From: Nostoc linckia FACHB-104
GTDB lineage: Bacteria > Cyanobacteriota > Cyanobacteriia > Cyanobacteriales > Nostocaceae
NCBI GenBank assembly: GCA_014696615.1
Contig: JACJQJ010000063.1
Coordinates: forward strand, 1 to 32,000
DNA: 32,000 bases
Direction of reading: 5' to 3'
Shown here piece after piece: positions 7,963-29,479 of the stretch; the stretch's first letter is position 1; each line of letters begins with the position of its first letter. The translations under genes and the position numbers were made by a program. The notes under the pieces are model-generated. The model had not been told where the DNA came from and ran no database searches. It saw only the letters and a list, made by a program, of their open reading frames with translations.

Positions 7963-10806
7963 TCAAATTCCCAACCAAGGCCGCAGATTAGCACGGCGAA
8001 CTTTCACCCCCGGCTGAGTCTTAGTCCCAATCCGAATATCATTCGATTGCCCACACTCCCAAACATAAACTAGTTCGCCATTATACTCAGCTAACGAATC
8101 TACACTCAGTCGCCACACACTATTAGCCGCATCCTTAATATGTTGCAGTTGATCATGATTAAACCCAGCAACAGCTTGACGTAATTCCTCAACCTTGAGC
8201 GATAGCACCAGCTGACCCAGTGACGACCTATCATCCCAGTTATTAATCATCTGCTGCGTCACAGATGGACTAGTGACGACCTTTTGCGCCTCATCGGTCG
8301 TCACGGTGACGACCTCTTGACGACCCAAAACACTTTCTGTTGTTGGATTTGCCTCCAGTGACGACCCATCCCCCTCATTCTGCTCCATAGGAGATAACAT
8401 CGAGATGCATTCGTTGCTCTCTTCTGTGATTTCATTAACCAAAAGGTCGTCACTTGTAAAAAATCCGTCACTACCAATACTTTCAGTCGTCACCCCTATT
8501 GTCATTTCAGTCTTCACTAGGTCGTCACTTTTTTGAATAAGGTCGTCACTAGTAGAAATCAGCAACGGGAAATTCTGCCCTGGCTTGCGGATACCAACAC
8601 AAGTAATAAACCTTCCCTTATTGGTTTTGCGCTTAATGGCATCAATCCCCAATTGCGCTTTTAGCAAATTCAGCAACGTACTAGAAAATCGTTGCTTATT
8701 CATCGTTCCTTGCCCGTTATTACTCGCCCATTGCGCGTAATTAGGATAAAGAAACTCTTCGGGATTTTGGCTAATATCACCAATACCCGTGATAGCCTTG
8801 GGGTCATAGTACAAACATTCATCAGCCCAATTCGCCAAAGGATTAGTCTCCATCAGGATTTCTTTGCTAAAAGCAGCCAGTGACGGCACTTTGCTATTTG
8901 TATCCACAAATAAATCCTGAACTTGGGCAAACGGCATTTCTAGCACCCAGGACAGCAAACCAGGCAGATAAGGCGTAAACTCCGCTATCAAGTCCCGGCG
9001 CTGATGGGGGGGAATTACATGATTAAACGGCATCGACAAGCGACGGCGAGCTGTAGCGTTAGTGTAATCCGTGCTTTGCATCGCTTCATTGGCAGCTACC
9101 ATCACCACACCATGAAATTTAAAACTGCCTGTTTGCTGTACTCCTTTCTTCTCATGTCGCAGGTCGTCATAGCCTGTAATAGCTTTAAACACACTGACAT
9201 CACCTGTGTAGCGTTCTGAATCAGTAATACAAATCAGCTTCTTGCCGTAAAAGGAAGCTGTCTCAAAGCGATTCTGTTCTAGTTGCTTGAGGGTGGTGAT
9301 AGCGTAGTTTTCTTTACCAACTAATTCCTGTACCAGTCTCAGAATTGTGCCTTTCCCAGTGCCGCCAGCGCCAATCAGCTCTAAATACCTTTGCATCTTG
9401 CCACCGCGTTCGGTAATGGTGGCGTTAATAGCAGCGCGAATTACCTCCACCCACAGATGTTGACCGTCACAAACTTCCAGTAGCCATTGCTGAATCGGGT
9501 CACAACCGACACTGCGGTCAGCCCATTTAAAGGGCAACTGTGTCAGCATTCGATAACCAGGGGCGTGGGGGTAGGTTTTCAGGGTATTGACATCCAGCAC
9601 ACAATCTTGTAAGCAGATAAAGCCGGGACAAACCTCCCAGTGGTTAATTCTTAAATCCCCCTTGAGAAGATTTAGGGTATTGGCGACAAAGCGATAGCTA
9701 AAATCTGGTCTGCGAGATCGCAATTCTGTGACGATAATATCTTGGGCTTCCTCATGGGGAATTTCACCCCAGACACCCAGCTTTTGTTCGGCTTCATACC
9801 AGTACCAAGCTTTATTGGCTACGTGCCAAGCTAGGCGATTGCGGTAATTTTCCGCGATAAATGCTGCAAAAGCTGATTCTGACAACATTTTGTTGTCAAT
9901 TTCGCTTTCGCGGAACTGACGTTCCCAAACTTCCAAGGAAACAGCCTTAGCTAACACTTTCTCGCGAAAAGCGTCGTCGCCGTTGGCTTGAATATAATCG
10001 TCCATTCCTTTCCCCTCAGCTGTACTCCAGTTGCCCGTGGCGATGTACACAGGCACTTTAAACTTAGCTAATTGGTGAGCTAGTTTTCTTTGGGCGGCAA
10101 TCACATTTTTGTTAGTAACAGCCCTATCGTCCGCGTCAAAGACAATAATCCATCCAAAATTAGCACGGGCTAGGAATTCTAGGGTATCGACTAGGTAACG
10201 TTTGCCTTGGGGGTCGTTTTTGGCTGGTGTTAAGCCCTGTTCCACACCAGGGAGGGCAACTGTGGGCAAGTTGTGAAAACAGCCGCAGATTGCCTTAAAC
10301 AGCCCTTCAGTGATCAGTAAGCAAGGATGACCGTTGATGTGATAGCAAAGGGCTTTAAGGGCTTCTAAATCCACCCAGTAGCGCGGATTGTGGGGATGAC
10401 GGGGTAGCATCGCGTCATATTCTTCTTTGGTGGCTGTGCGATACTTGGGGGCTTTTTTCTCGTCGGTGTTTTTCCAGGGCTTGTTAGGGCGGTACTGCCC
10501 AAAACCGTTGACCCCTTCTAGCCAGATGCCTGGTGATTGGGCTGTGTATCCTAAGCGCTGGGTCGCTTCTTTAATGTCCATTGAGCGACAGTTAGCAGCT
10601 ATCCATTCAGGGCATAAACCGCGTTTTGTTACACACTCTTTATAGTGTCTGTCTGAAAGTCTGTTAGCGGTCAGGGTTGCAGTTGTTGGTGTAGTATTCA
10701 CTTTTCTTACTCCAGATTTTTCAAAATCCGGGTAACTCCTTATTGCAACACGACCGCAGGACTGGTTATGATAGATATGCGATCGCGGTTCCGAAAAAGT
10801 CGCCAA
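7963..10806 (-). CDS. Replicative primase-helicase (Toprim/DUF3854-like N-terminus plus P4/D5-type SF3 NTPase)
   Basis: Toprim-like CLLITEG and IIVFDADD. Walker A LIGAGGTGKGT and Walker B LICITDSE. The C-terminal tail is acidic and low-complexity (SDDL / VVT repeats). Confidence 0.85.
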   Translation of the reverse strand: MATFSEPRSHIYHNQSCGRVAIRSYPDFEKSGVRKVNTTPTTATLTANRLSDRHYKECVTKRGLCPEWIAANCRSMDIKEATQRLGYTAQSPGIWLEGVNGFGQYRPNKPWKNTDEKKAPKYRTATKEEYDAMLPRHPHNPRYWVDLEALKALCYHINGHPCLLITEGLFKAICGCFHNLPTVALPGVEQGLTPAKNDPQGKRYLVDTLEFLARANFGWIIVFDADDRAVTNKNVIAAQRKLAHQLAKFKVPVYIATGNWSTAEGKGMDDYIQANGDDAFREKVLAKAVSLEVWERQFRESEIDNKMLSESAFAAFIAENYRNRLAWHVANKAWYWYEAEQKLGVWGEIPHEEAQDIIVTELRSRRPDFSYRFVANTLNLLKGDLRINHWEVCPGFICLQDCVLDVNTLKTYPHAPGYRMLTQLPFKWADRSVGCDPIQQWLLEVCDGQHLWVEVIRAAINATITERGGKMQRYLELIGAGGTGKGTILRLVQELVGKENYAITTLKQLEQNRFETASFYGKKLICITDSERYTGDVSVFKAITGYDDLRHEKKGVQQTGSFKFHGVVMVAANEAMQSTDYTNATARRRLSMPFNHVIPPHQRRDLIAEFTPYLPGLLSWVLEMPFAQVQDLFVDTNSKVPSLAAFSKEILMETNPLANWADECLYYDPKAITGIGDISQNPEEFLYPNYAQWASNNGQGTMNKQRFSSTLLNLLKAQLGIDAIKRKTNKGRFITCVGIRKPGQNFPLLISTSDDLIQKSDDLVKTEMTIGVTTESIGSDGFFTSDDLLVNEITEESNECISMLSPMEQNEGDGSSLEANPTTESVLGRQEVVTVTTDEAQKVVTSPSVTQQMINNWDDRSSLGQLVLSLKVEELRQAVAGFNHDQLQHIKDAANSVWRLSVDSLAEYNGELVYVWECGQSNDIRIGTKTQPGVKVRRANLRPWLGI
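8220..8549. repeat. Iteron-like array of the 9-mer GTGACGACC / GGTCGTCAC inside the 3' part of the primase-helicase gene
   Basis: Exact GTGACGACC at 8220, 8273, 8306 and 8358. Exact GGTCGTCAC at 8296, 8445, 8520 and 8541. One-mismatch copies at 8317 and 8485. A perfect 19-bp palindrome GGTCGTCACGGTGACGACC lies at 8296-8314. Confidence 0.8.
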
Positions 10807-15231: not shown

Positions 15232-16686
15232 ATGAAACAGGGGGTTTTGGAGTTAGCCCTGGCTAGTGTGTGTGGTGTGGCTGCAATCATCGGGCTTGCA
15301 ACATCACAAACACGCCAGCCCTACGATTTGACACAGATTCAGTTCTGCCCAAAGTCAATAAACGGCGTACAAAGTCAAATAAAGCTAGATAAGCGTTTTT
15401 GCAACCAGCCGCGCTTTGTCCTGGCTGAAGAATGGCGACGCTATGGGCTATATGGCAGCATGATTCCTTATAAGGGTGATGCCATTCAATGGGTGCGTGA
15501 TTTGCCCACAGACAACCCTAATCAGTTGTTGGGTGGTGCGCTTGGTGTTATGGGGCTATGGGGTATTGTCGGTTGCTTGCTTGTGCGTACACAACGCCTC
15601 AAGCGCAAGGATTATGAATTGGGAGAACTAGAAAAGACTGGCGGCTATGCAATTTGGCAGCAACACAAGCACAAACGTGAAGTTAAGCAGCATTCCACCC
15701 AGCTTTATACTGAGCGTTTAAAGGATGGGTTGTCAGGACTGGACACAGAGGAACGCAAAGCACTAGGACTGACTGATGAGGAGAACGAACGGGCTAAGGC
15801 TCGAATTCAGCTTGAGGATTTTCTAAAAGCTCGTGCTGTTAATCATTCTGTGATGGATAAGACGATTGCTGAGAATTTAAGGGACAGAGCGAAGGCGGAG
15901 CAGGAACGCAGCAAGATTGAGGGGAAGACCAAAGGCGCGATCGCAAATAGTGACAGCCATAATTTAACTGACCAGCGCCTCATCAGTGACTTAATCGAAG
16001 CGCTCAAGAATCATGAAGATGGCTGGCTGTGGAAGGTTATCGACAATCAAAAGCCCGTTTGGGTGTTAGGAGAAGCGGGAAGTGGTAAATCAACTCTAGC
16101 CGCGTCGATTGTCATGCTCAGAGAATATCTGTTTGATATGCCTTTGTATCAGCTCATAGATGCTCACGCCGGAGACAATTTAAGAAATGCATGGAAATAT
16201 TTAAGTCCTCAGTTGATAGCGCAAACAGAATCAGATATTGGACAAGCTTTTGATGATGCCCGCGAGCGTTGGTTAGACAGAATTAATAATCAACCTGATA
16301 AACAACCGCAACAGTTACTAGTTGATGAATTTACTAACTATTCTGAGTCAGATATCACCAAGGAGCCTGCGAAAAAGTTTGTTAAAGCGTCTCTTAGCGA
16401 CCCTAGAAAGGCAGAAGAAAGATTAGTTTGTATTGCCCATTTCTTCACTAATACTGCTGTTGGTGGCAGTGATGGAACTGCTAAAGGTAGAAGCAGAGGC
16501 ACTATTCAAATTGACCGCAAAACTGCTGATGGTAAAACACCTTTGAAAGTCGCAATAGTTAACGGTTTAAATAATTCAGAGGGGGACGCAGAAGTAGATA
16601 AAAAGGTGACAATTCCAAGTTGGTTGACTCCTGAAAATATTCACAAGCATTTTAACGGTCAGCCGATTGATTTTGATGATGTGTGA
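15232..16686 (+). CDS. Membrane-anchored P-loop NTPase of unknown function
   Basis: Two N-terminal hydrophobic segments, Walker A GEAGSGKST and Walker B-like QLLVDEF. The start is 3 nt after the previous stop. Confidence 0.7.
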   Translation: MKQGVLELALASVCGVAAIIGLATSQTRQPYDLTQIQFCPKSINGVQSQIKLDKRFCNQPRFVLAEEWRRYGLYGSMIPYKGDAIQWVRDLPTDNPNQLLGGALGVMGLWGIVGCLLVRTQRLKRKDYELGELEKTGGYAIWQQHKHKREVKQHSTQLYTERLKDGLSGLDTEERKALGLTDEENERAKARIQLEDFLKARAVNHSVMDKTIAENLRDRAKAEQERSKIEGKTKGAIANSDSHNLTDQRLISDLIEALKNHEDGWLWKVIDNQKPVWVLGEAGSGKSTLAASIVMLREYLFDMPLYQLIDAHAGDNLRNAWKYLSPQLIAQTESDIGQAFDDARERWLDRINNQPDKQPQQLLVDEFTNYSESDITKEPAKKFVKASLSDPRKAEERLVCIAHFFTNTAVGGSDGTAKGRSRGTIQIDRKTADGKTPLKVAIVNGLNNSEGDAEVDKKVTIPSWLTPENIHKHFNGQPIDFDDV

Positions 16687-17011: not shown

Positions 17012-19408
17012 ATGTTGCACCCAACCATGCCCCAGGACTTCTCCGGACAAAATCTTCGTGGGCGCTCCTTCAGGGGACAAAACCTTGAGGGAGCAAATTT
17101 TAGTTATGCAGATATCCGGGGTGCAGATTTTACCGGGGCGAATCTGAGAGGCGTAAGCTTCCGACACGCTAGAGCAGGACAAGAAATTCGGTGGTCTATA
17201 TGTATATTAATATCTTCATTAATTCTGGCATTACTATCGGGTATTGTTGCAGTAATTGCTGGTAGCAGTCTTTATCATATATTTGTGCTGCCTTTTACAT
17301 TTGTTGTCAATAAAAATTTCTGGTATTTTATTCGAGACTACATATTCATTATTAATTTAATAATATTAGGATTATTTAGTTTTCTATTTTTTCTGTTTAT
17401 CCGGAAAGGACTTGATATAGCTTTAAAAATTGTCACGTTTGTAGGAGCTATCGCTGGTGCAGGTATTGTAGTTATATTTGGCAATACGGCTACGGCTTTA
17501 AAGGGATTATTTAATTACTCGAATCTTTTTAAAAAAGAAGTTGAAAAAGCAGGAGTGCAAATTCCAATTCAAGATAGCATTGTCATAACTGAAGAAACTC
17601 AAAAAGCTCTACAAGTTATTCAAGAGCGTATTCAGGGGGAATTTATCGAGGCTACTAAACCATTAGCTGTAGCTTGGTTTGGATTTATAGCTTTGCTAGT
17701 GTTTGTATCTGTTGCTGGAGTTATAGTTGGAACATTTTCTTTAACCGCAGCTATAGCTGTGGCTGTCAATATAACTGAGGCTTTCACTATTGTCGCAGTT
17801 GGGATTTCCATTCCGTTTGTGATTATTGCAGTAGAAACTGAGAAAATCAACAGGATTTTACTTGACATAACAATGGGGCCTATACTGCAAGAATCTGTTA
17901 GTTACTTGGTAACTTTGAGTTCCAATGCTTGGATATTACTTGGTATTTATCTTAGTTGGCGCTCTTTATCTGGATACAAAAATTTTATTTTGATTCAGAA
18001 ATTTTCTATCGCTATTGCAACAATAGGTGGTACAAACTTTCACAGAGCTAACTTAGTAGATGCTGATTTTACTTATGCAGTGCTTAAAAACACAAATTTT
18101 ACAGCAGCTAATGTAACTCGTACATGCTGGTTAAATACTAAAAAACTAGACCTGGCTCGTGTTGATCAAACTTATCTTGACAATTCACAAGTACGGAAGT
18201 TACTGATTACAGGTGAAGGACAAGGCAAAAGTTTTGACTATCTATTTCTGCGAGGTATTTATTTGCGTGGAGTAAATTTAGCGGAAGCTAGTTTCATAGG
18301 TGCTGATTTAAGTGAAGCTAGCTTGCAGGATGCGAATTTATCCAGAGTTAAACTAAAACAGACGCAATTAGATGGAACTGACTTTACAGGTGCTTGTCTT
18401 ACCGGAGCCTACATAGAAGATTGGGGCATTACCAGTGATACCAATTTTGATGGCGTAAGGTGTGAGTACGTTTATATGCACCTACCCACCAAAGAGAATC
18501 CTGACCCTCTCCGCAAACCAGATAACAATAAAGAAGTTTTTTCAGATGGGGAGTTTGGTGATTTTATCAAGCCAATTGTTGACACACTTGACCTCTACCA
18601 TAACCAAGGTGTTGACCCGCGTGCTATTGCAATTTCCTTTAAGGAGTTAGCAGAGAATCACCCTGATGCAGAGCTTGAAATTGTAGCAATGGAGAAACGA
18701 GGTGAAGATAAGTTTTTACTTCGTGCTAAAACCGCAGCTACGGCTAATAAGTCCCAACTGAGTGCAGAATATTTTGAAATTTATAATCAACTCAAGTCAT
18801 TAGCCGAACAAGAATTAAAAGCATTGATAGCAGAAAAAGATAGCAGAATTCGTAGTTTAGAAACTATGGTCATGACGGCGCTAGAGCGTCCCAGCTTTTA
18901 TTCAAATATTCAAGTAGAAGAGGTAGGTACTATGACAAATAACCCCGGTGGTTTTTCAATTGGTGGTTCAGTTGGCGGCAACGTCAACAACGTTCAAGGT
19001 GACAACAACCGCGCAGTGCAAGGGGACAATAATCAGGCTGTGCTTGGAGACAATAATCAAGTTACACAACAAAATCAAGTGGGTGCAGATAGTTCTGAAT
19101 CGCTCACAAAAGAAGATGTAGTTAAATTACTAGCTCAACTAGAAACTTTGATTAAAGGGGCAGAAATACCAGCCGATACCAAAGAAGAAATAGTAGAAGA
19201 TTTGAGTGCTGCCAAAAAAGCCACAGACAAAGAAGAACCAAATAAGCAACGAGCATTAGACCGTTTGGGAACTGTGGCAGAAACACTTGAAAAAACTAGT
19301 AAGACTGTAGAATCCGGTCATAAAATCTGGGCAACAGCCAAGCCGATTATTATGAAAGTTGCAGCTTGGTTGGGTGCGGCAGCAGGTTCTCACCTTTTGG
19401 GATTGTAA
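17012..19408 (+). CDS. Multipass membrane protein with N-terminal and central pentapeptide repeats and a C-terminal Asn/Gly/Gln octad-repeat motif
   Basis: Pentapeptide repeats (NLRGRSFRGQNLEGANFSYADIRGADFTGANLRGVSF, then NLAEASFIGADLSEASLQDANLSRVKLKQTQLDGTDFTGACL). A hydrophobic region of about 280 aa sits between them. A coiled-coil segment follows, then NVQGDNNRAVQGDNNQAVLGDNNQV. Confidence 0.85.
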   Translation: MLHPTMPQDFSGQNLRGRSFRGQNLEGANFSYADIRGADFTGANLRGVSFRHARAGQEIRWSICILISSLILALLSGIVAVIAGSSLYHIFVLPFTFVVNKNFWYFIRDYIFIINLIILGLFSFLFFLFIRKGLDIALKIVTFVGAIAGAGIVVIFGNTATALKGLFNYSNLFKKEVEKAGVQIPIQDSIVITEETQKALQVIQERIQGEFIEATKPLAVAWFGFIALLVFVSVAGVIVGTFSLTAAIAVAVNITEAFTIVAVGISIPFVIIAVETEKINRILLDITMGPILQESVSYLVTLSSNAWILLGIYLSWRSLSGYKNFILIQKFSIAIATIGGTNFHRANLVDADFTYAVLKNTNFTAANVTRTCWLNTKKLDLARVDQTYLDNSQVRKLLITGEGQGKSFDYLFLRGIYLRGVNLAEASFIGADLSEASLQDANLSRVKLKQTQLDGTDFTGACLTGAYIEDWGITSDTNFDGVRCEYVYMHLPTKENPDPLRKPDNNKEVFSDGEFGDFIKPIVDTLDLYHNQGVDPRAIAISFKELAENHPDAELEIVAMEKRGEDKFLLRAKTAATANKSQLSAEYFEIYNQLKSLAEQELKALIAEKDSRIRSLETMVMTALERPSFYSNIQVEEVGTMTNNPGGFSIGGSVGGNVNNVQGDNNRAVQGDNNQAVLGDNNQVTQQNQVGADSSESLTKEDVVKLLAQLETLIKGAEIPADTKEEIVEDLSAAKKATDKEEPNKQRALDRLGTVAETLEKTSKTVESGHKIWATAKPIIMKVAAWLGAAAGSHLLGL

Positions 19409-19417
19409 AACTGAATT

Positions 19418-20551
19418 ATGAGTCAGTCGCCTGAGAACTTGGAACCACAACAGCCTGATGCAAATTCAACGCAGCAGGCTGATAGTTCCACATCTCAAAA
19501 TGTGGTGCAGGGGAATCAAAATCGAGTTATTCAAGGGAACGACAATAAGGCAGTTTTGGGTAATAGTAACACCGTAGTTTATGGAAACAACAACCAGATA
19601 CAGTTTGTTATTCCCAGCACTGAAAAGTTACAGCAACAGCAACATGAACGGGAAATACCTTCTTTATTACCCTATTTAGCCAACCGTAGCGAGCAGGAGT
19701 TTGAACTAGACAAGTCCATCAAAAAGCTAATAGAAAAAAATCCTCCTTATCCTCTAATCTGTATCATTCATGGTGATGAGTATCAAAGCCATGACAAGTT
19801 TTTAGAACGCTTGCATAAAGTTTCGTTACCTAAGTTTTTAGGACTAGATCCTAACCAAGACTTAATTAAAAAATATCATCTTCCCTGTTCTGCACAATTA
19901 AAGAATACGTATGACTTCTCAGATTACTTACGCAAAAATTTATCAGATAGCGTTACGGGAGATAGTTTAGCTTCTCTAGAAGAAATTAATGATTTTTTCT
20001 ATAAATGTTCTATTCCAGTCCTTGTTCATACTCATTTATTTACTGAACAATGGACAAGGCAAAGATTTGATATTTTGCAGAAGATACTGGATTTTTGGCA
20101 GGAATGGCCTGTTCTTCGGAGTAGCCAAAAAATAATAGTTTGTATATTTATTAAATACAAAACTAGGCGTAAAAAGTATACGAATAATTCGTTTAAAACA
20201 TGGTTATTCAGTTTTATAATTTACTTGTTAAAACAATATCGCCACCAGAGAGTTAATCACAAAATTTGTCGGTATATAGAAACCTTATCACTATCCAACT
20301 TTGAAAAATTTAATCGGTTGTCAGGAGTCGCTTTACCAAAGCTTATTGGAGTGAAACGAGAAGATGTTGAGAATTGGGTTCGTATGGAATATACTCAAAC
20401 CGTCATTGGAGAAGCAATGGCTGATAAACTCTTCAAAGAAATTAGAGAGTTATTTGACAAATGGGAAGAACAAAACTCATCCAATATAATTCCGATGGAT
20501 GATTTAGCTGATAACTTAATCAAACTTCTGAAATCTAATTTATCAGGTTAG
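19418..20551 (+). CDS. Adaptor-like protein: N-terminal octad-repeat motif plus a P-loop-less NTPase-like (possible inactive STAND) domain
   Basis: N-terminal VVQGNQNRVIQGNDNKAVLGNSNTVVYGNNNQIQF matches the C-terminal motif of the upstream protein. It is followed by LLPYLANRSEQEFEL and PLICIIHGDEYQSHDKFLERL with no GxxxxGK[ST]. The inactive-STAND assignment is from memory and tentative. Confidence 0.65.
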   Translation: MSQSPENLEPQQPDANSTQQADSSTSQNVVQGNQNRVIQGNDNKAVLGNSNTVVYGNNNQIQFVIPSTEKLQQQQHEREIPSLLPYLANRSEQEFELDKSIKKLIEKNPPYPLICIIHGDEYQSHDKFLERLHKVSLPKFLGLDPNQDLIKKYHLPCSAQLKNTYDFSDYLRKNLSDSVTGDSLASLEEINDFFYKCSIPVLVHTHLFTEQWTRQRFDILQKILDFWQEWPVLRSSQKIIVCIFIKYKTRRKKYTNNSFKTWLFSFIIYLLKQYRHQRVNHKICRYIETLSLSNFEKFNRLSGVALPKLIGVKREDVENWVRMEYTQTVIGEAMADKLFKEIRELFDKWEEQNSSNIIPMDDLADNLIKLLKSNLSG

Positions 20552-20562
20552 GGAGAAATTAT

Positions 20563-21576
20563 ATGAAGTTTCCGTTTTATGTAGGTGGTAGAACCCGTCA
20601 TGAAAATGAATTACCTGCAAAACTGCCAACTTCTCAGCGTTCTCAATTACTTAAACCAGAAAACTACATTCCAGATCCAGGTTTGAGGGATGCTTGCAAT
20701 GTGGCATTGTTGCTAGGACAACCTTTACTGCTGACTGGCGAACCAGGGACTGGAAAAACTCAATTTGCTTACAGTCTGGCTTGGGAACTAGGCTTTGGTA
20801 CTCCGCTAAAATTTGAAACCAAGTCCACTAGCACTGCCCGTGATTTATTCTACACTTATGATGCTCTAAAGCGGTTTCAGGATATTCAGAATCACTCTAC
20901 CTCAACCAAGCACTTGGATTACATCAATTATCAAGCTCTAGGACTAGCTATTTTACGCACTCGTGAGCCATCTGAGGTAAGTCAATATTTACCACCTGAA
21001 CTTTTACATAAGCAAAAAGTACGTTCTGTTGTACTAATTGATGAAATTGATAAAGCCCCTCGTGACTTCTGCAATGATGTCTTGAATGAGTTAGAACATA
21101 TCTATTTTCGAGTTCTAGAGTTTGGCAATGCAAAAATTGAAGCAGATCCAGAATTACAACCAATTGTGATTATTACTAGTAACTCTGAAAAAAATTTACC
21201 AGATGCCTTTTTACGTCGGTGTATTTATTATAATCTACCGTTTCCAGATGTAGAAACATTGCAGGATATTATTACTAATTATCTTGGCACTTATGTTGGT
21301 CACAGTAGCTCTTTTTTACAAATGGCTTTGGATTTATTCTATAGGTTACGCGCACCGCAAAGTGGATTAAGAAAAAAACCTGCAACTGCTGAGTTATTAA
21401 GTTGGCTAATAACTTTGCAAAAATTCACTTGCGATACAGATAATCCTTTAACTCAACCAGACAATGTCCTTTGTACTCTTAGTACCCTAATTAAAACTGC
21501 TGAAGACCAACAAAAAGCCACTAAAATTGTAGAACAATGGATAAAGGAACAGACAAAGGCATCCCGGATTGGTTAA
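20563..21576 (+). CDS. MoxR-type AAA+ ATPase
   Basis: Walker A LLLTGEPGTGKTQFA, Walker B VVLIDEIDKAPRDFCNDVLNELE and sensor region IVIITSNSEKNLPDAFLRRC. GGGAGA Shine-Dalgarno upstream. Confidence 0.9.
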   Translation: MKFPFYVGGRTRHENELPAKLPTSQRSQLLKPENYIPDPGLRDACNVALLLGQPLLLTGEPGTGKTQFAYSLAWELGFGTPLKFETKSTSTARDLFYTYDALKRFQDIQNHSTSTKHLDYINYQALGLAILRTREPSEVSQYLPPELLHKQKVRSVVLIDEIDKAPRDFCNDVLNELEHIYFRVLEFGNAKIEADPELQPIVIITSNSEKNLPDAFLRRCIYYNLPFPDVETLQDIITNYLGTYVGHSSSFLQMALDLFYRLRAPQSGLRKKPATAELLSWLITLQKFTCDTDNPLTQPDNVLCTLSTLIKTAEDQQKATKIVEQWIKEQTKASRIG

Positions 21577-24335
21577 ATCCTGACAGATTGATAGAGTTGA
21601 TTGAGCTACTAAGGGAAGCAGGGTATAAAATTGGTATTTCCCAGTATATAGCGGCTCAGGATCTAATTCTGTTCCTAATTGCTCAAGAGCCAACTTTAGA
21701 TAATCCACAACGATTGAGAACTTTACTTAGACCAATTTTTTGTAAATCTTTAATTGAGCAGGAAAATTTCCAATACCACTTTGATCATTGGCTAGAGTTA
21801 CTTAAACAAATTAGTCGTACTATTCATACAACAGAAAAAGCAAATTTAGAAACTCAAGAAGCATCGTACCCATCAAAAAAATTCAGCCCACGCTGGCGGC
21901 GATTACAGTGGATTTTGATATTTCTAGCACTTATAACAGGAACTTCTTTACTTCTGATTTATAGAAATAACACACAGACCCAACCAGGGACTAACCAACC
22001 AGGGACTAACCAACCAGGGACTAACCAACCAGGGACTAACCAACCAGGGACTAACCAACCAGGGACTAACCAACCAGGAACTAACCAACCAGGAACTAAC
22101 CAACCAGGAACTAACCAACCAGGGACTAACCAACCAGGAACTAACCAACCAGGAACTAACAATAATCCGAACTCTAAAGTAATCCCAATTAACTGGCAAA
22201 TCACACTTTATTTCTTACTTAGTCTCTGTTTTATTTATATAAGCTTGCGGCTGTTCTGGTTATGGCGAGCTAATTTATTTCTGCAACGCTCCAGTACAAG
22301 AACAATACCAGAGCTACAGACAATTTCAATTCCTGACTTGGAGCAAAATTTATTTTCAAGGAATTTGTTTATAAGAATCGCTAAGGATTTCAGACAGCGC
22401 ATTTTAGTTCCTACTAAAACACTGGATGTAGAGAAAACTATTGACGCATTTTTTCGGCATGGGGGTTGGGTAGAGCCAGTATACTGTAATTATACGGTGA
22501 TTCCAGAATATTTGTTTCTTGTTGAACGCACTAGCTATCGAGATCATCAATCTAAGTTTGTTGCCGAGATGATTGAGAGTCTCAAAAATGATGGAGTTTA
22601 CCTAGAAACTTATTTTTACGATGAAGATCCACGCATTTGCTTTTCAAGTGATGAACATAATTCCCCGCTAAAACTTCATGAAATCGCCACTAAATATCGT
22701 CAGCATTACCTCATTTTGGTTTCGGATACGGAAAAGTTGTTTAGTTCTATTAGTGGTGAATTAGAACCTTGGGTAAATCAACTGTTAGATTGGGAAAACC
22801 GGGCGATTCTCACACCAAAGCCAGTAAAAAATTATGGTTATGAAGAATTTGTACTGGCACAGGATTTTTTTATTTTACCTGCAACACCTAAAGGTTTGCA
22901 GGCATTGAGCCAAAAATTAAAACAGAGAACAGCAACTAATTATTATCCCATTGAAGAGATTCAATTACCTTTGCCTGAGTCTTTACGTACAAGACCTCTG
23001 CGTTGGATTGAGCGCAATTCTCCACCACCTGAAGATATTGATAAAATGCTTGTTTCCTTAGAGGAATATCTTGGTAAGGATAACTTTTACTGGCTTGGGG
23101 CTTGTGCAATCTTTCCACAGTTACATTGGAACATCACTGTTTATTTAGGTAATACTTTCAAAACAGAGGACGGGCATTCTTTGTTAGAATTAGCTTCGCT
23201 AACTAAATTGGCTCGCTTACCTTGGTTTCGTTTTGGATATATACCTGACTGGTTGCGTATTCGCCTGATTTCTAGCCTAACTCATGAACAAGAACATCAA
23301 ATCCGTACTGCGCTCCGAGATTTACTAATAAAAGCTGTTCATGATTCTGTAGGTGGATTGCAATTGGAAGTAGCAACACAATCTTATAGTTTTAGTTCCA
23401 AACTTGTTAATCCAATCCTTCGTATCTTATCTAAACAAGCTTCTGAAGATAGCTTATTAAAAGATTATATTTTTCTAGGCTTTATGACAAGATCGCCTGT
23501 ACTTGCTATAAGTGTACCAAAAGAGTTTAGTCGCTTACTACAAAGACAGAAAAGATATAATTCCTCTAAAAAAACACCACTGCCAAACTACCGTAGGCAC
23601 TTTTTGAAATGGGTTGCAATTAGAGGAGTAGTCTTGGCGACGGTAGTGGTAGTTCTTGAGACTTTACCACTTTATGATTTAAATAATTCTCTTCGGAGGC
23701 TAATAGAAAATATAACAGGTTTTGTAGTTACTGCACTTCTACCTCAAGAACTGAAAACCTTATTAGGGCATGATAACTCTGTCTTGAGTGTGAGTTTTAG
23801 CCCCGACGGTAAGACCTTGGCTTCTGGCAGTGCTGACAACACAATCAAACTCTGGAATTTAGATACAGGAAAGGGAATCCGCACCCTCAACGGGCATAGT
23901 GATTATGTCTATAGCGTAAGTTTTAGCCCCGACGGTAAAACCTTGGCTTCTGGCAGTCGTGACAAGACCATCAAACTCTGGAATCTAGAGACAGGCAAGG
24001 AAATCCGCACCCTCAACGGGCATAGTGATTATGTCTTGAGTGTGAGTTTTAGCCCCGACGGTAAAACCTTAGCTTCTGGCAGTGATGACAACACAATCAA
24101 ACTCTGGAATCTAAATACAGGACAAGAAATCCGCACCCTGAAGGGGCATGATGGCTCTGTCTTGAGTGTGAGTTTTAGCCCCAACGGCAAGACATTGGCT
24201 TCTGGCAGTAGTGACAAGACAATCAAACTCTGGAATCTAGAGACAGGCAAGGAAATCCGCTTTTCATATACTCCCCGACAATTTTCATTTTATCTGCGAA
24301 CCGACAACAACATTGATATCAATCGCCAGGGCTGA
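21537..24335 (+). CDS. CoxE-like vWA protein with TM segments, a PGTNQ repeat linker and a C-terminal WD40 array (apparently truncated)
   Basis: CoxE-like N-terminus (LIELLREAGYKIGISQYIAAQDL ... LRTLLRPIFCKSLIEQENFQYHFDHWL). A LDVEKTIDAFFRHGGWVEPVY segment leads into YLFLVERTSY, where the MIDAS motif would sit, and a later strand reads HYLILVSDTE. Hydrophobic segments WILIFLALITGTSLLLI, ITLYFLLSLCFIYISLRLFWLW and GVVLATVVVVLETL. Four WD40 units (SPDGKTLASGS..TIKLWNL). The first 40 nt overlap the MoxR gene, so the start is uncertain. Confidence 0.85.
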   Translation: MDKGTDKGIPDWLNPDRLIELIELLREAGYKIGISQYIAAQDLILFLIAQEPTLDNPQRLRTLLRPIFCKSLIEQENFQYHFDHWLELLKQISRTIHTTEKANLETQEASYPSKKFSPRWRRLQWILIFLALITGTSLLLIYRNNTQTQPGTNQPGTNQPGTNQPGTNQPGTNQPGTNQPGTNQPGTNQPGTNQPGTNQPGTNQPGTNNNPNSKVIPINWQITLYFLLSLCFIYISLRLFWLWRANLFLQRSSTRTIPELQTISIPDLEQNLFSRNLFIRIAKDFRQRILVPTKTLDVEKTIDAFFRHGGWVEPVYCNYTVIPEYLFLVERTSYRDHQSKFVAEMIESLKNDGVYLETYFYDEDPRICFSSDEHNSPLKLHEIATKYRQHYLILVSDTEKLFSSISGELEPWVNQLLDWENRAILTPKPVKNYGYEEFVLAQDFFILPATPKGLQALSQKLKQRTATNYYPIEEIQLPLPESLRTRPLRWIERNSPPPEDIDKMLVSLEEYLGKDNFYWLGACAIFPQLHWNITVYLGNTFKTEDGHSLLELASLTKLARLPWFRFGYIPDWLRIRLISSLTHEQEHQIRTALRDLLIKAVHDSVGGLQLEVATQSYSFSSKLVNPILRILSKQASEDSLLKDYIFLGFMTRSPVLAISVPKEFSRLLQRQKRYNSSKKTPLPNYRRHFLKWVAIRGVVLATVVVVLETLPLYDLNNSLRRLIENITGFVVTALLPQELKTLLGHDNSVLSVSFSPDGKTLASGSADNTIKLWNLDTGKGIRTLNGHSDYVYSVSFSPDGKTLASGSRDKTIKLWNLETGKEIRTLNGHSDYVLSVSFSPDGKTLASGSDDNTIKLWNLNTGQEIRTLKGHDGSVLSVSFSPNGKTLASGSSDKTIKLWNLETGKEIRFSYTPRQFSFYLRTDNNIDINRQG
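21981..22160 (+). repeat. 15-bp tandem repeat x12 (caaccaggRactaac), in frame, encoding (PGTNQ)n
   Basis: Twelve contiguous units differ only at one synonymous G/A position: units 1-6 and 10 have GGG, units 7-9 and 11-12 have GGA. Confidence 0.95.
23764..24260 (+). repeat. 126-bp periodic, near-identical WD40-coding repeats (4 units)
   Basis: gt(g/a)agttttagcccc recurs at 23790, 23916, 24042 and 24168 with long identical runs between units. Confidence 0.85.
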
Positions 24336-24586: not shown

Positions 24587-25138
24587 ATGAAGGTAGACGG
24601 CAACGGACAAGGCAAGATATTAAGCCAAGACGAATTACGGCGATTGTTCATCGAGGGTTTGCTTACCCCACGCGATCGCGCTCTGTTTGGCATCTGCCTG
24701 TTTACTGGTTGTCGCGTATCAGAAGCGTTGGCTCTCAACATGACTGATATCAAGTCTGGAACCATCACTTTTCGCAAGTCTACCACCAAAGGCAAGTACA
24801 AAACACGGATTGTAGACATTCCGCCAACGTTGGCGGCAATACTTGCAGAGTACCAGCTTAAAGGGGTAGTGATGTTCCCTGGCAAGCGCGGTGTCACAGA
24901 GCGTCTGACCCGATTCATGGCAGACAAGATATTGAGAGAAGCCTGCAAGCGCATTGGGGTAGAAGGAGTTAGCACCCACTCGTTTAGGCGAACTGCCCTG
25001 ACGCAGATGTCCAGTGCGGGGATACCTTTGCGAACTATTCAAGAAATTTCTGGGCATAGCGATTTAGGGACGTTGCAGCGTTATCTGGAGGTCACGCCGG
25101 AGCAGAAGCGGAAGGCGGTTTCGGTGATTGGGTTTTAG
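24587..25138 (+). CDS. Short tyrosine recombinase/integrase (catalytic domain only)
   Basis: GCRVSEALAL (Arg I), HSFRRTALT (HxxR) and GHSDLGTLQRYLEV (His/Tyr). It is 183 aa, and an in-frame stop 9 nt upstream of the ATG rules out a longer N-terminus. Confidence 0.85.
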   Translation: MKVDGNGQGKILSQDELRRLFIEGLLTPRDRALFGICLFTGCRVSEALALNMTDIKSGTITFRKSTTKGKYKTRIVDIPPTLAAILAEYQLKGVVMFPGKRGVTERLTRFMADKILREACKRIGVEGVSTHSFRRTALTQMSSAGIPLRTIQEISGHSDLGTLQRYLEVTPEQKRKAVSVIGF

Positions 25139-25174
25139 ATGGGCTAGATTTGCTTATCCTAAAAATAAACTCCC

Positions 25175-25738
25175 ATGCCCCGTCAACCTCGTCAAATAAA
25201 ACCCGATTACTGCTATCACATAACTACCCGTTGCAATAACCGCGAATTTAAATTGAGTCGTCGGGAATGCCGGGAGGTGTTTCTCTACGCTATTAAAAAA
25301 GCTTTCGATAAATTCAATTTTAAACTTTATGCTCTGTGCATAATGTCGAATCATGTTCACTATTTAATTGAACCATTAGAACCAGAAGACCTGCCCAAAA
25401 TTATGCATTGGCTCAACTGGTATACTGCCATGTGTTTTAATCGAATGCTCAACAGAACTGGTCACTTTTGGGAAAAAAGATATCACAGTTCAGGCTTCCC
25501 TATGACGAATAAAGATAGAGCATTAAATACCTTACGTTATATTCATGCTAACCCCTCTTCAGCAGGTTATTCTTTTGGCTTCTTTTACGAATTTAGCAAC
25601 TATGGTACTTATGACCGTTTAACAGACGATGGGATTACTCAATGGCATCCTGCTTTTCTTGAATTAGGTCAAACTCTAGATGAATGTGCAACAAAGTATC
25701 GCGGTTTTTGTAAACGCTATCGACCACCAAAGAAGTAA
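25175..25738 (+). CDS. REP-associated tyrosine transposase (RAYT) / IS200-like Y1 HUH transposase
   Basis: HUH motif MSNHVHYLIEP and catalytic Tyr region LRYIHANP. 187 aa. Confidence 0.85.
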   Translation: MPRQPRQIKPDYCYHITTRCNNREFKLSRRECREVFLYAIKKAFDKFNFKLYALCIMSNHVHYLIEPLEPEDLPKIMHWLNWYTAMCFNRMLNRTGHFWEKRYHSSGFPMTNKDRALNTLRYIHANPSSAGYSFGFFYEFSNYGTYDRLTDDGITQWHPAFLELGQTLDECATKYRGFCKRYRPPKK

Positions 25739-25928: not shown

Positions 25929-28900
25929 CTATTTTTTGGGTGGATTTGCTAGTTTTTTATTAATTATTACCTTTCCTTCCCATCCGTTCTTCGTTATCAA
26001 TTTCTCTCGACCTTCTTCGACTACTTCGACTATCCTCTTCTCTATCATCCCCTTCAAATATTTCTGTATCTTCAATCGATCTTCAGATTCATCCCTATTA
26101 ATCGATTCCACCACACAAACGCTTTTCATTCGGTTTATGAATTCGGTTTCCAAACGAACAACATCTACTCGCCCAATACTCCTAAAATATAAATTTATAA
26201 TTATTTTCGATATTTCTATTAAATATTTCGATAAATTCCAAGAAAAATCTAATAATTTATCATATAATTCAACACCAATTAAAAATATAAAAAATGAATC
26301 AAATAATGAATCTATTTGCTCATTTATTTTTTGGAAAAAATCTTTTTGGAAAAAATCTTTTGAATTTGAATTCTTCTCCTTTTTTCTAAATTTATAATTC
26401 ATATAAAATTCATATAAATCGTTTACTGTATACTTGTCTTTTAAACTCCTTACTCTTAAATATTCAAGGCTTTGCTGCTCGACGATATAAATTATATAAA
26501 GAGGAGAAATATTAGAAATTAGAAAACCTAGAACATTCTGCCCACAAAGGGTCTGAATATAACTCTCCCACTCCTTATGTCTAACACCTAGGGATTTTTT
26601 GAAATCTCGATTTTCTAAGGCTTGAATAAAACAGATAGGTATAATGAGTTTCAGATCAAAATCTCTCAGATATAGCTGGTCTATTACCTCAACTGGGTCA
26701 ATAAGTTTTTTGCTTATTATATTAGATATTTGTAATAAAATTGTATTAAGAACTGGCTCGGCTCTATAGGGTTTAACTATCCAATCAAAACTGCCAATCA
26801 GTCGAGAATAATCTTTGGGAAGTTGACAAGCATTTAGCATTGCCCTATATTTTTTCTGTTTAATTAAAGAAGCTAAAAGCAATGCAGCACGCAAAGCTCT
26901 ATTTTCGTCTTTATCCCACAGCCAATTAACTAAAGCTTGTAACGCACTGGGAGTAGGAATACCCACCAGAGCATCCATAACCTGATGAATAGAATCGGCG
27001 GTTACAACTTCCTCAATTTTAGGCACAGCTATATCGCCCATACGTATCAAAGCCTGATCTAAATTCAGGCGAAATTCTATATTATCCAAATTGGCATACT
27101 GCTGAGTTAATAATTCCGCCGCACTTGATAAGTTAGTCAACGACAAAGCATTTACGGCAGCCTTACGACGAGCATCTGTTTCACTTGTGTTCTCAAGGGT
27201 TTCTTTTAAAAAAGAGAACACCGAAGTACGTCTTCTGTCGTCCGCAGCGACTGCTGCAAAGGCATGATTTACTATATCCTCATTTCCATCTTCTCCCAGC
27301 CGGGATTTAAAACTATTAATAATTTCCAAAGCTAATGTCGAATCACATGCTTGAACATCAGCCAAACACTCAAATGCGACAACTGAATCTACGGTGCGTA
27401 CTTCTGTAATTAAATTTGTACTATCAGAAGCTATTCCACACCAAAGTTTTAGTGTTTCACGCCAAGTATCAGGGTCAGCTTTAAAACGACTAGTTAGACC
27501 ATCAGCATTGTCTCGTAATTGACTGGCTGCGAAAAATTCCTGTAAGGTCAAGTGTGCAAACTGGTAACGTTCACCGCCATCAATCTTCAGTAGCAAACCA
27601 TTACGCTCCACAATTTCAGACAAAATGGATCTGGTACAGTCAGGTTGAAGATTGAGACTAGGGAGTATGCCTGTTACTTGTGATTCAACAGTTATGCTAT
27701 CTACACTCCGACGGTCTTGCCCTTGTTGGTTAGCATTGTCTTGAAAGAAAAGTGCTAAATGCTGAAGTATAAGTTTTTTATCACGCGCTTGAAACAGGTT
27801 GCGTTCTTGATGCCATTGTTCTAGCAAAATGTCTGTTGCTTTCCGATAAAACTCTGCCCTTGAATGGGGTAGCACAGCAGGAGTATCAGCATAAAGATAG
27901 GCAATAATAGTAAGCATTAGCGGATTACGTGCCAGTTCCATAATTCGCGGTCGGTCATGCAATGTTTGTATAAGTTGCTCAACAGATTTCTCTGCTGGCA
28001 TATCTGGCTTCCACGGAACTAAAAATTCACGAATCTGTTGGTCGTTGAACTCAACAACTTCTAGCGTCTGATCTATGAAATCATTAAATTCCCCCCTATA
28101 AACAGCAGTACGGCAAGTAATAATAACAGGACAATCTTTATGTGTATCTAAAAAATCATTAATTAGGTCAACTACCTTTTGACGCTCATTACTGCTTACC
28201 TCGTCAAAACCGTCTAATAGCAGCAACAGCTTGTTTTTATCTAAACTTTGGGATACGAAGGATTGAGCATTAGGAAAACCATCCCGCGCAAAGGCTTCAA
28301 CCAATTGCTGCTCTACTGTCAATTCTTTATTACTGAATCGATGTAGCTCTACTAAAACTGGTACACATTTAAATTTTTTAAACAAATCTGCCCAACGGCC
28401 TTCAGCGTAGCAAAGAGCGATATATTTCAACAGCATTGTTTTACCCGACCCTGGAGACCCCTTTACCATAAGGCGGCGATACTTAGCTACAGCTTGAAAG
28501 GCATCAATTAAATCAGTGTCTTTAGTGCCTGTAACTTTGAGTGGAACGTATATGTCTTTTAGCTTTAAAGGTCTATTAGGTCGAAATGATATTTTTAAAT
28601 TCTCATGCTTTTCTTTCAATTCTTCTTTATAGTGTTTTAAGGCACTATGTCTCATGAATTGGAAACCTGAGAACCTGCCATATATTTGATTTCCTACTGT
28701 ATTAAAAATGCTACTAAACAAATTTATTAAAGTATTACCAAAAGCAGTACCAAAAGCAGTACCTATCAAAAGGATTAATAAGCCAATCCATCCATTTTCT
28801 GGCTTGAACAGTTCTCGCAAGTCCTTTTTCTTGGCTTCTCGTTGTTCCTGAAACGCTTTATCATATATTTTCCCAATCTCGAAAGGTTTCAGATTCTGGC

Positions 28901-29162
28901 ATTCTGGTTTGTATAAATTAATGGCCTCTTTAGTTCGCGGATCTTTAATCTCGTCATTCTCTGCGTCTTGCTTGGCTTGTTCTTTAATTAGAGATTCACA
29001 AGATTGCTGAGTAGTTAATTTAGGAGTCTGAGGATAACTCGGAACTGCTGAGGCGAAAAGCACTAACCACAGAGTTAGCGTAAACAGAAGTGCGTATAAT
29101 CGTTGCTGGTTTAAACTATTTTTTGCAGACTTTAATTTTTTAATATATTGAACTAGTTTCAT
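25929..29162 (-). CDS. Membrane-anchored NACHT NTPase with HEAT/ARM-like repeats and an AT-rich low-complexity tail
   Basis: Walker A VKGSPGSGKTMLLKYIA and Walker B LLLLDGFDEV. Two N-terminal hydrophobic segments (LYALLFTLTLWLVLFASAV, GWIGLLILLIGTAFGTAFG) flank about 100 aa. I prefer the ATG at 29162. The ORF track start at 29180 is a TTG. Confidence 0.9.
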   Translation of the reverse strand: MKLVQYIKKLKSAKNSLNQQRLYALLFTLTLWLVLFASAVPSYPQTPKLTTQQSCESLIKEQAKQDAENDEIKDPRTKEAINLYKPECQNLKPFEIGKIYDKAFQEQREAKKKDLRELFKPENGWIGLLILLIGTAFGTAFGNTLINLFSSIFNTVGNQIYGRFSGFQFMRHSALKHYKEELKEKHENLKISFRPNRPLKLKDIYVPLKVTGTKDTDLIDAFQAVAKYRRLMVKGSPGSGKTMLLKYIALCYAEGRWADLFKKFKCVPVLVELHRFSNKELTVEQQLVEAFARDGFPNAQSFVSQSLDKNKLLLLLDGFDEVSSNERQKVVDLINDFLDTHKDCPVIITCRTAVYRGEFNDFIDQTLEVVEFNDQQIREFLVPWKPDMPAEKSVEQLIQTLHDRPRIMELARNPLMLTIIAYLYADTPAVLPHSRAEFYRKATDILLEQWHQERNLFQARDKKLILQHLALFFQDNANQQGQDRRSVDSITVESQVTGILPSLNLQPDCTRSILSEIVERNGLLLKIDGGERYQFAHLTLQEFFAASQLRDNADGLTSRFKADPDTWRETLKLWCGIASDSTNLITEVRTVDSVVAFECLADVQACDSTLALEIINSFKSRLGEDGNEDIVNHAFAAVAADDRRRTSVFSFLKETLENTSETDARRKAAVNALSLTNLSSAAELLTQQYANLDNIEFRLNLDQALIRMGDIAVPKIEEVVTADSIHQVMDALVGIPTPSALQALVNWLWDKDENRALRAALLLASLIKQKKYRAMLNACQLPKDYSRLIGSFDWIVKPYRAEPVLNTILLQISNIISKKLIDPVEVIDQLYLRDFDLKLIIPICFIQALENRDFKKSLGVRHKEWESYIQTLCGQNVLGFLISNISPLYIIYIVEQQSLEYLRVRSLKDKYTVNDLYEFYMNYKFRKKEKNSNSKDFFQKDFFQKINEQIDSLFDSFFIFLIGVELYDKLLDFSWNLSKYLIEISKIIINLYFRSIGRVDVVRLETEFINRMKSVCVVESINRDESEDRLKIQKYLKGMIEKRIVEVVEEGREKLITKNGWEGKVIINKKLANPPKK

Positions 29163-29479
29163 AAATTTGATGAATAGCAACTACATTACCCGATTATTTC
29201 TGCCACAACTTGGCTCATCTTCAGCCCCCGCCAAGCGCAAGCTGTATGGAATCGTCCGTGATACTAATGTGCATAGCTAGGGCGGCTTTTGTATCTTTTT
29301 AAAGATTTTATAGTTAATTACGCTTAAACAAAATTACAAATGTCTAAAATTTATTTAAACAATTTTGAGCGACAAAGTTCTGGAGTGATTACCTTGGACG
29401 ATATCGGGAATCGTTAATCGCTATATCCATTAAGAGCGCCAGGAGTTGCGATCGCGCTTTTGATGGGATTTTAATTCAC

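Follow-up and report, generated by a model that had tools for sequence, protein, structure and literature searches.

What connects two neighbouring genes whose products carry the same eight-residue repeat, one array towards the end of the upstream protein and the other near the start of the downstream protein? We addressed this question in Nostoc linckia FACHB-104, using a stretch of 32,000 nt (hereafter the window) in which two plus-strand open reading frames, ORF A and ORF B, share a reading frame. A preliminary description of this DNA had proposed that the repeats may form a homotypic recruitment or templating interface, and this idea gains support at the sequence level from paired matches across genomes, a mobile N-terminal module, purifying selection and the layout of sister operons. 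The reading that we favour, at a probability of roughly 0.55, is that the octad arrays belong together as cognate halves of one repeat-type adaptor, which links varied sensors to one effector module. The octads would then be a repeat-type homotypic adaptor or an amyloid-like signalling motif, with STAND proteins or inactive-STAND (iSTAND)-MoxR-vWA systems as sensors and a C-terminal helical domain as effector. We refer to the ORF A side as the effector side and to the ORF B side as the sensor side. The features of the junction are as follows.

17012-19408, plus strand: ORF A, 798 residues, with N-terminal pentapeptide repeats (residues 8-54)
18929-19405, plus strand: module b, 159 residues, consisting of a G-rich segment, octads and a four-helix C-terminal domain
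18932-18934, plus strand: ATG codon (M641 of ORF A) that opens module b, invariant in alignment A1
18941-18979, plus strand: G-rich segment NPGGFSIGGSVGG, from the translation and alignment A1
18971-19063, plus strand: effector-side octads of ORF A, VGGNVNNV (degenerate), VQGDNNRA, VQGDNNQA and VLGDNNQV
19097-19405, plus strand: four-helix domain predicted by AlphaFold2 (module-b residues 57-151), followed by the G/A-rich amphipathic tail KIWATAKPIIMKVAAWLGAAAGSHLLGL
19409-19417, plus strand: spacer aactgaatt, 9 nt between ORF A and ORF B, including a second in-frame stop TGA
19418-20551, plus strand: ORF B, 377 residues, consisting of a leader, octads and an iSTAND domain
19418-19501, plus strand: sensor-side leader MSQSPENLEPQQPDANSTQQADSSTSQN, kept together with the octads on unrelated partner proteins
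19505-19600, plus strand: sensor-side octads of ORF B, VQGNQNRV, IQGNDNKA, VLGNSNTV and VYGNNNQI
19670-20152, plus strand: iSTAND domain of ORF B (residues 85-245; PF19995, E 1.7e-21, 77.7 bits versus a cut-off of 24)

The octad peptides quoted in the preliminary description agree exactly with the translations of 17012-19408 and 19418-20551, and the shared period of eight residues is real. The regular expression [VIL]-x-G-[ND]-x-N-x-x, applied to all six frames of the window, returned 10 matches in total: four consecutive ones in ORF A (at 18971, 18992, 19016 and 19040), four consecutive ones in ORF B (at 19505, 19529, 19553 and 19577), and two isolated chance matches on the minus strand. ORF A residues 644-691 read NPGGFSIGGSVGG-NVNN-VQGDNNRA-VQGDNNQA-VLGDNNQV-TQQNQVG, and ORF B residues 29-61 read V-VQGNQNRV-IQGNDNKA-VLGNSNTV-VYGNNNQI. 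The arrays are colinear, with octad 1 ending in R and octad 3 opening with VLG on both sides, and in register 14 of 24 positions are identical; the two sides nevertheless form systematically distinct subtypes, GDNN on the effector side versus GN-x-N on the sensor side. N, G, V and Q together make up 31 of 40 residues on the effector side and 27 of 44 on the sensor side, the arrays are 24-32 residues long, and the effector octads are devoid of P and K. This composition fits the bias reported for amyloid signalling motifs, which are rich in N, Q, G and V, poor in P, K and L, and about 25 residues long (Dyrka et al. 2020).

Pairing and exchange of the two modules across genomes

A forward scan of the module-b alignment against one genome per species recovered 76 loci, all of them cyanobacterial and mostly from Nostoc, with further representatives in Anabaena, Nodularia, Calothrix, Rivularia, Mastigocoleus, Gloeocapsa, Crinalium, Symploca, Moorena and Coleofasciculus. 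Complete module-b genes were followed in 43 of 57 cases by a same-strand gene opening with the full sensor-side module, and half of the unpaired ones (7 of 14) still retain the junction and a shortened start of the downstream gene. The reverse scan, in which metagenomes were searched with the sensor-side module, yielded module b directly upstream at 15 of 15 loci, a few of which overlap the genome loci. Thus, pairing of the two motif-bearing genes is far beyond chance, and the matches come in adjacent pairs, contrary to the random occurrence in unpaired proteins that the preliminary description had considered as its refutation. The effector-side octads are near-invariant across the 43 loci. 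Several pairs coexist in one genome, e.g. at three loci in Nostoc sp. PA-18-2419 (L010, L011, L024), and the cassette resides on 3-4 plasmids of Nostoc sp. C057 and on at least 10 Nostocales plasmids altogether, where it is annotated merely as “pentapeptide repeat-containing protein” followed by “NACHT”, “FGE” or “hypothetical”. Three loci (L013, L022, L077) have one module b followed by two sensor-side genes, and three orthologous iSTAND operons (L023, L027, L030) have a standalone module b as their upstream gene.

The junction itself is conserved as well. The spacer is exactly 9 nt long (TAG-aactgaatt-ATG) and near-invariant in sequence in 38 of the 43 pairs, and at the junction in the window (19406-19420) the two genes are separated by TAA-AAC-TGA-ATT, with two in-frame stops. 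Together, the same frame, the two stops and the near-invariant spacer suggest translational coupling or an ancient gene split. A read-through fusion of ORF A and ORF B was considered and found unlikely, since two in-frame stops separate the same-frame ORFs in a conserved arrangement.

The sensor-side module was found on proteins that otherwise have little in common. Its leader, which is acidic and Q/P-rich with invariant M1, Q11, D14, N16 and D22, occurs on all partner types. The iSTAND orthologues with 51-76% identity (P0002-P0019 except P0015) all retain the leader and 3-4 octads, and more distant iSTANDs have other N-termini (another Q/N/G-rich motif, a coiled coil, CHAT, trypsin or TIR). 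Eleven proteins match ORF B in the first ~60 residues alone (65-81% identity) and then continue as NACHT, nSTAND1 or FGE-sulfatase proteins. The 42 partners comprise 16 NACHT, seven nSTAND1 and six iSTAND proteins as well as FGE-sulfatase, WD40-only and TPR proteins; the receptor-side motif is located at the extreme N-terminus of the STAND NTPases and is also carried by the latter three types. Judged by these alignments, the sensor-side module behaves as a mobile N-terminal cassette. The families of effector-associated domains (EADs) in Pfam gave no match on ORF B or the 42 partners.

Nucleotide comparisons place the limits of this cassette precisely. In blastn searches of the window against the loci, homology with more than 60 loci stops at 19536-19594, i.e. 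at the end of the ORF B octads, whatever follows, and it starts at 18896-18931 where the upstream part differs. Domain exchange occurs exactly at the motif boundaries. A second class of breakpoint lies at 19010, where pentapeptide/transmembrane (TM) paralogues (L059-L075) share ORF A through the first octad and continue with a different tail (...NLQGAQFAGGLVNADTVNA...GWQEAE). Their next genes encode other pentapeptide proteins, in which no shared motif was found. These unmatched neighbours rule out that tail matching is a habit of all pentapeptide/TM proteins, and since proteins with the GWQEAE tail lack a shared motif, the pairing principle is specific to module b. In two loci (L028, 5940-9518; L055, 8619-10157), the genes after module b encode large proteins whose N-terminus is MTNNPDDFTVGGSVGGNINNIQGDNNQQ. 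Here the G-rich part of module b and one octad serve as an N-terminal tag, perhaps as a second, related adaptor variant.

Module b and the operon around it

The preliminary description had regarded the large upstream protein as the partner of ORF B. This does not hold for ORF A as a whole, but it does for its last ~159 residues, which also occur as standalone proteins of ~175 residues. ORF A consists of pentapeptide repeats, about six TM helices predicted from hydropathy (residues 64-274), a second pentapeptide block (residues 333-485; both blocks are Pfam/NCBIfam matches), a conserved post-pentapeptide region (residues 486-640) and module b (residues 641-798). With its C-terminal 313 residues as query, 370 proteins were found at E<=0.001. 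Among the matches listed (120 of the 370), the module-b block runs from MTNNPGGFSVGGSVGG through three octads and ~95 helical residues to the tail KIWTTAKPIIVKIATWLGAAAGSHLLGL, and it always ends 121 residues past the last octad. It is encoded as a standalone protein (175-200 residues) or behind pentapeptide/TM regions, a helix-turn-helix domain, a GT39-like fragment or unknown domains, and its sequences in several Nostocales genera share ~67-89% identity.

Translation may start internally at the ATG of M641, or this codon may be left over from a gene fusion. AGGT(A) is found 8-10 nt before it at ~50 loci, even where the encoded residues differ, and in standalone module-b genes a stop codon precedes the same AGGT-bearing upstream sequence. 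Because AGGT(A) is kept, the ATG is invariant and stops precede the standalone genes, internal initiation could free module b from the large fusion.

For the ~110 residues after the motif, described initially as helical, AlphaFold2 indeed predicts four helices (module-b residues 61-76, 82-99, 106-124 and 128-148) with a predicted local distance difference test (pLDDT) score above 90. The hydrophobic segment said to terminate them is confirmed as moderately hydrophobic, but with a best 19-residue Kyte-Doolittle mean of 1.34 it stays under the threshold of 1.6 for a TM call, and in the predicted model the tail packs into the bundle. An exhaustive profile search recovered the helical domain in 348 clusters at E<=1e-3 (192 at E<=1e-10), always at the C-terminus. 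Many of these relatives (P0351-P0478) are ~140 residues long and share the EPDK/EPNK motif and the ...WLG tail, while their first 30-45 residues carry other Q/N/G/S-rich motifs, e.g. MTNNPGGISQSNTGSMGGGMQAAxGNNNQQ or SQSxSISGGQLSxxQIGQAGRDLxQ.

The only annotated relative is a phage defence candidate of PADLOC, PDC-M14B, which matches ORF A residues 679-780 (window 19046-19351) with E 1e-7 and aligns with the final 106 positions of the model; a full-text literature search on PDC-M14 returned nothing relevant. Pfam, NCBIfam and DUF883/ElaB gave nothing for the helical domain at E<=0.1, the module-b profile had no match among PDB sequences, and Foldseek searches with the module-b model retrieved generic helical bundles alone (E>0.1), with no HeLo-like or Bab-like match. 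A Bell-like identity of module b was rejected, as hhalign detected no homology and merely a match of 5% probability inside G/N-rich segments. No phage link was seen, because module b was not found on the viral contigs searched.

Sister operons offer an informative comparison. In the contigs of two distantly related sister iSTANDs (P0026 and P0065; iSTAND-MoxR operons L092-L095), the upstream gene encodes a Bell-like protein of 144-147 residues with an N-terminal hydrophobic helix, and the motif at its C-terminus (QQT..NQGQVIGQM..AKNI) has its counterpart at the start of the iSTAND (QQEVGRN.GQ.IGQM). In L092, a transposase gene is inserted between the two. These pairs present the classic gene-pair layout of Bell/BASS-type amyloid signalling (BASS, bacterial amyloid signalling sequence) as described for NLRs (Dyrka et al. 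2020, bioRxiv 10.1101/2020.01.06.895854). The octad module thus takes the place that in these two relatives belongs to another shared motif, and module b takes that of the effector. The BASS survey (bioRxiv 10.1101/2020.01.06.895854) screened NB-ARC and NACHT proteins only, so that iSTAND proteins lay outside its search space. A further pair is located in the window itself, where a 140-residue protein with an N-terminal hydrophobic helix (2570-2992) carries ENWQGINIKGGKPTIKNNTLMFGSK at its C-terminus and an overlapping NB-ARC/TPR protein (2989-5424) opens with MTSENWQGINIKGGKPIIKNNTFIFEP. From its sequence, it is a classic Bell/BASS-type effector-NLR motif pair with the same layout as that of P0026 and P0065.

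Downstream of ORF B, which is 100% identical to the hypothetical protein H6G27_27800 of Nostoc linckia FACHB-104, two more genes complete the operon.

20563-21576, plus strand: ORF C, 337 residues, AAA+ ATPase of the MoxR/AAA_5 type (Pfam AAA and AAA_5), MadB-like
21537-24335, plus strand: ORF D, 932 residues, with a helical N-domain, a TM helix, (QPGTN)x11, a TM helix, a core (residues 240-730), a TM helix and WD40 (residues 737-917)

The ORF C gene is kept beside the iSTAND in nine loci (L012, L013, L023, L027, L030, L092-L095), and a MoxR-class ATPase fits, with gene context as the basis of the clade assignment. The core of ORF D is conserved and recurs with highly variable C-terminal domains (WD40, GUN4, lysozyme, CVNH, MORN, FGE-sulfatase, TPR, beta-lactamase). 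Pfam and sequence searches detected no vWA domain in it; the three top PDB matches of its AlphaFold2 model (pLDDT 79) are the vWA of NorD in NorQ-NorD complexes, NorQ being a MoxR-type ATPase, although these fold matches are weak (E 2.8e-4 to 8.5e-4, TM-scores 0.35-0.39). ORF D is thus, in terms of its modelled fold, a probable vWA component with a variable C-terminal domain. The eleven QPGTN repeats between two of its predicted TM helices are perfect (window 21948-22199, residues ~150-210). With an iSTAND, an AAA/AAA_5 ATPase and a vWA-like core, the last of them weakly verified, the operon fits the iSTAND-MoxR-vWA ternary conflict systems (Kaur et al. 2020, PMC7159879), in which the iSTAND N-terminus is the usual place of an EAD and a second copy is found in the adjacent gene (PMC7159879).

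The surroundings include a DUF3854/D5-primase-like gene, a phage-type integrase and an IS200 transposase (7963-10806 and 24587-25738) as well as other STAND genes (NACHT at 25929-29180, a weak P-loop at 15232-16686). The closest orthologous operon (L013), with 89% DNA identity, is located on a 38.5-kb plasmid of Anabaena azotica. These gene surroundings and the plasmid orthologue are consistent with a mobile defence island.

Proposed mechanism and competing explanations

In the adaptor reading, the sensor would detect a cue and oligomerise. This sensor would be the iSTAND with its MoxR ATPase and vWA-like/WD40 protein in the window, and a NACHT, nSTAND1, FGE-sulfatase, WD40 or TPR protein elsewhere. 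Oligomerisation would gather the N-terminal octad modules, each with four octads or about two turns of a ~16-residue beta-roll, and these might fold into a stacked beta structure with ladders of N, V and G. Such a beta nucleus would recruit, and probably template in register, the colinear octads of module b, be it in ORF A, which according to its six predicted TM helices would already be anchored in the membrane, or in a standalone protein. Folding of octads directly N-terminal to the four-helix domain could then cluster or unlatch that domain, and the freed, conserved amphipathic W-L-G tail helix would act, most likely on the membrane, to execute a defence or cell-death response. We infer that the two sides bind each other physically, that their octads form a beta stack or amyloid, which way the signal travels, that the effector acts on the membrane and that the system serves defence. 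Indirect support for a beta stack comes from the composition, the tandem pseudo-repeats, the predicted disorder of the motif when alone and matches to the beta-roll family LbR_Ice_bind (PF21300), which reach 26.9 bits on ORF B and 19.9 bits on module b, short of the gathering threshold of 30; sub-threshold matches (16-27 bits) lie over the octads in nine of 42 partners and in module b. A near-invariant effector motif also fits an organisation with many sensors and one executioner, as far as the sequences can tell.

Several points weigh against this reading. Interaction and fibril formation of the octads are deduced from sequence, the beta-roll match is weak at its sub-threshold score, and AlphaFold2 predicts no beta structure in the octads, with pLDDT <40 over module-b residues 1-56 (octads plus G-rich segment). 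All described BASS and fungal motifs are C-terminal, whereas the effector motif here precedes its domain and, in ORF A, lies inside the protein. The tail does not qualify as a confident TM segment, the predicted four-helix domain has no informative structural neighbour, and the vWA assignment of ORF D depends on weak fold matches. Moreover, given a near-invariant effector motif and several pairs per genome, pair specificity is not evident. The selection estimates given below share a single reference sequence.

A bolder version of the adaptor reading is possible, but we hold it only tentatively. Here the octads would be a new prion-like motif family of eight-residue half-turns, whose sensor and effector arrays stack in register into a hetero-beta-solenoid that activates an undescribed C-terminal four-helix executioner. 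The system would thereby mirror HET-S/Bell, with the motif ahead of the domain and the amphipathic helix at the C-terminal end. Since the helical domain occurs in hundreds of ~140-residue proteins with other motifs, it would represent a second general class of amyloid-controlled effectors in filamentous bacteria, served by iSTAND-MoxR-vWA, NACHT and nSTAND1 sensors.

The strongest rival retains the adaptor and discards the templating: the octads would dock into a closed, hetero-oligomeric beta-roll without a fibril, comparable to EADs or Death domains. The EAD layout is matched exactly, with one copy at the iSTAND N-terminus, a second one next door and several per genome, and the presence of the module on NTPase-free FGE-sulfatase, WD40 and TPR partners points to a general docking tag. 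The GDNN and GN-x-N subtypes suggest heterotypic complementarity. However, the EADs known so far are small and globular, of the alpha or alpha+beta type, and no EAD model of Pfam matches, while composition, shortness, tandem pseudo-repeats and AlphaFold2 disorder all resemble signalling amyloid motifs. Two sister iSTANDs furthermore pair with a Bell-like protein via a BASS-like motif. We therefore consider a finite, non-templating adaptor unlikely, though a serious contender.

Could the octads instead be passive low-complexity linkers, without a role in binding, whose pairing reflects a recently spread plasmid cassette and translational coupling? The cassette does occur on many Nostocales plasmids, integrase, IS200 and primase-like genes lie nearby in the window, and AlphaFold2 disorder over the octad region would suit a linker. 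Selection can be estimated from the ratio of nonsynonymous to synonymous differences per site (pN/pS), here from pooled Nei-Gojobori counts of the window versus the loci; all comparisons are made against the window and are thus not phylogenetically independent.

Effector SVGG and first full octad, 16 codons SVGGNVNNVQGDNNRA after the G-rich segment: pN/pS 0.10
Effector octads 2-3 and flank, 27 codons: pN/pS 0.19, pS 0.55
Helical domain: pN/pS 0.21
Sensor octads: pN/pS 0.18, pS 0.78
Sensor leader: pN/pS 0.47, pS 0.27 (unusually low)

With pS at 0.46-0.78 in the four segments other than the leader, the low pN/pS at high pS indicates that the octads are constrained as protein, beyond what young DNA or a slack linker would account for. 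The low pS of the leader may reflect a constraint on the nucleotide sequence close to the start codon and, together with the 9-nt spacer, counts in favour of the linker explanation. Yet the octads (pN/pS 0.18-0.19 at pS 0.55-0.78) are held as tightly as the helical domain (0.21), position-specific colinearity is not expected of linkers, and the module sequence is kept on six unrelated partner architectures. Passive linkers are accordingly given little credence.

Least probable of all is that the ~680-nt junction serves primarily as a homology patch by which homologous recombination swaps the sensor genes downstream and the membrane or N-terminal domains upstream, with any protein role secondary. 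This would account for the sharp breakpoints (18896-18931 and 19536-19594) that dozens of differently flanked loci show, for the second class at 19010 in pentapeptide proteins with a different tail and for the frequent shortened remnants of the downstream gene, but colinear repeats under purifying selection on both sides would remain unexplained. A recombination patch is also compatible with the adaptor reading, as shuffling at adaptor boundaries is an expected signature of an adaptor.

Relation to known signalling systems

That neighbouring sensor and effector genes can share a motif is already known in principle. In bacteria, BASS1-11 link Bell-domain effectors to NLR-like proteins (bioRxiv 10.1101/2020.01.06.895854), and Bab/Agp amyloid signalling has been described more recently (Ibarlosa et al. 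2024, bioRxiv 10.1101/2024.11.07.622273). With BASS and the fungal HET-S/NWD2 pair, the octad system shares a short N/Q/G/V-rich motif on adjacent, collinear genes a few nt apart, a receptor motif at the extreme N-terminus of a STAND NTPase, a small helical effector, pseudo-repeats as in r1/r2 of HET-s and predicted disorder of the motif. As in BASS, it is confined to multicellular (filamentous) bacteria. It differs from BASS in its tandem eight-residue repeat with 3-4 copies on each side, in a motif that is N-terminal to the effector domain and internal in the common fusions of 700-800 residues, and in partners that include iSTAND-MoxR-vWA systems and non-NTPase proteins; its amyloid nature, moreover, is presumed. 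Module b lacks hhalign similarity to Bell, and its amphipathic helix is C-terminal instead of N-terminal.

EADs, of which EAD1-11 and bDLD1-3 have been described (Kaur et al. 2020, PMC7159879; Kaur et al. 2021, PMC8195603), likewise have one copy at the iSTAND N-terminus and another in the adjacent gene, homotypic coupling is predicted for them, and the same adaptor is found on many core and effector proteins with several copies per genome. In contrast to these small globular alpha or alpha+beta domains, the octad repeat is predicted to be unstructured alone, and its two sides are distinct subtypes that are not each other's closest relatives. The ice-binding beta-roll of Lolium perenne (PF21300) has a comparable half-turn repeat, N-x-(x)-V-x-G, of 7-8 residues, but with ~16 units versus the 3-4 per protein seen here, and there is no sign of homology or ice binding. 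ElaB/YqjD/DUF883, the name given by JGI to one module-b protein (P0138), resembles module b as a small helical protein with a G/A-rich hydrophobic C-terminal segment; module b differs in having no match to Pfam DUF883 at E<=0.1 and a sub-TM tail that is packed in the predicted bundle.

A full-text literature search for the motif strings gave no relevant paper, and neither the motif module nor the helical domain falls within a family of Pfam or NCBIfam. The octad repeat, the inverted arrangement, the helical effector family and the link to iSTAND ternary systems thus appear to be undescribed, with the separation from BASS families drawn from their descriptions rather than from profiles. If the adaptor reading is true, bacterial NLR-type signalling would gain a new motif family and a new effector domain, and iSTAND-MoxR-vWA systems would be able to use such motifs. 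This would join amyloid signalling motifs (Dyrka/Saupe) with EADs and ternary conflict systems (Aravind), two fields that have so far been separate. It would also offer a clean experimental handle: two peptides of ~30 residues, a helical domain of 100 residues and many sensors acting on a near-invariant effector side. Finally, a two-gene cassette with such sharp bounds would provide a natural example of adaptor boundaries as shuffling points in the evolution of immune genes.

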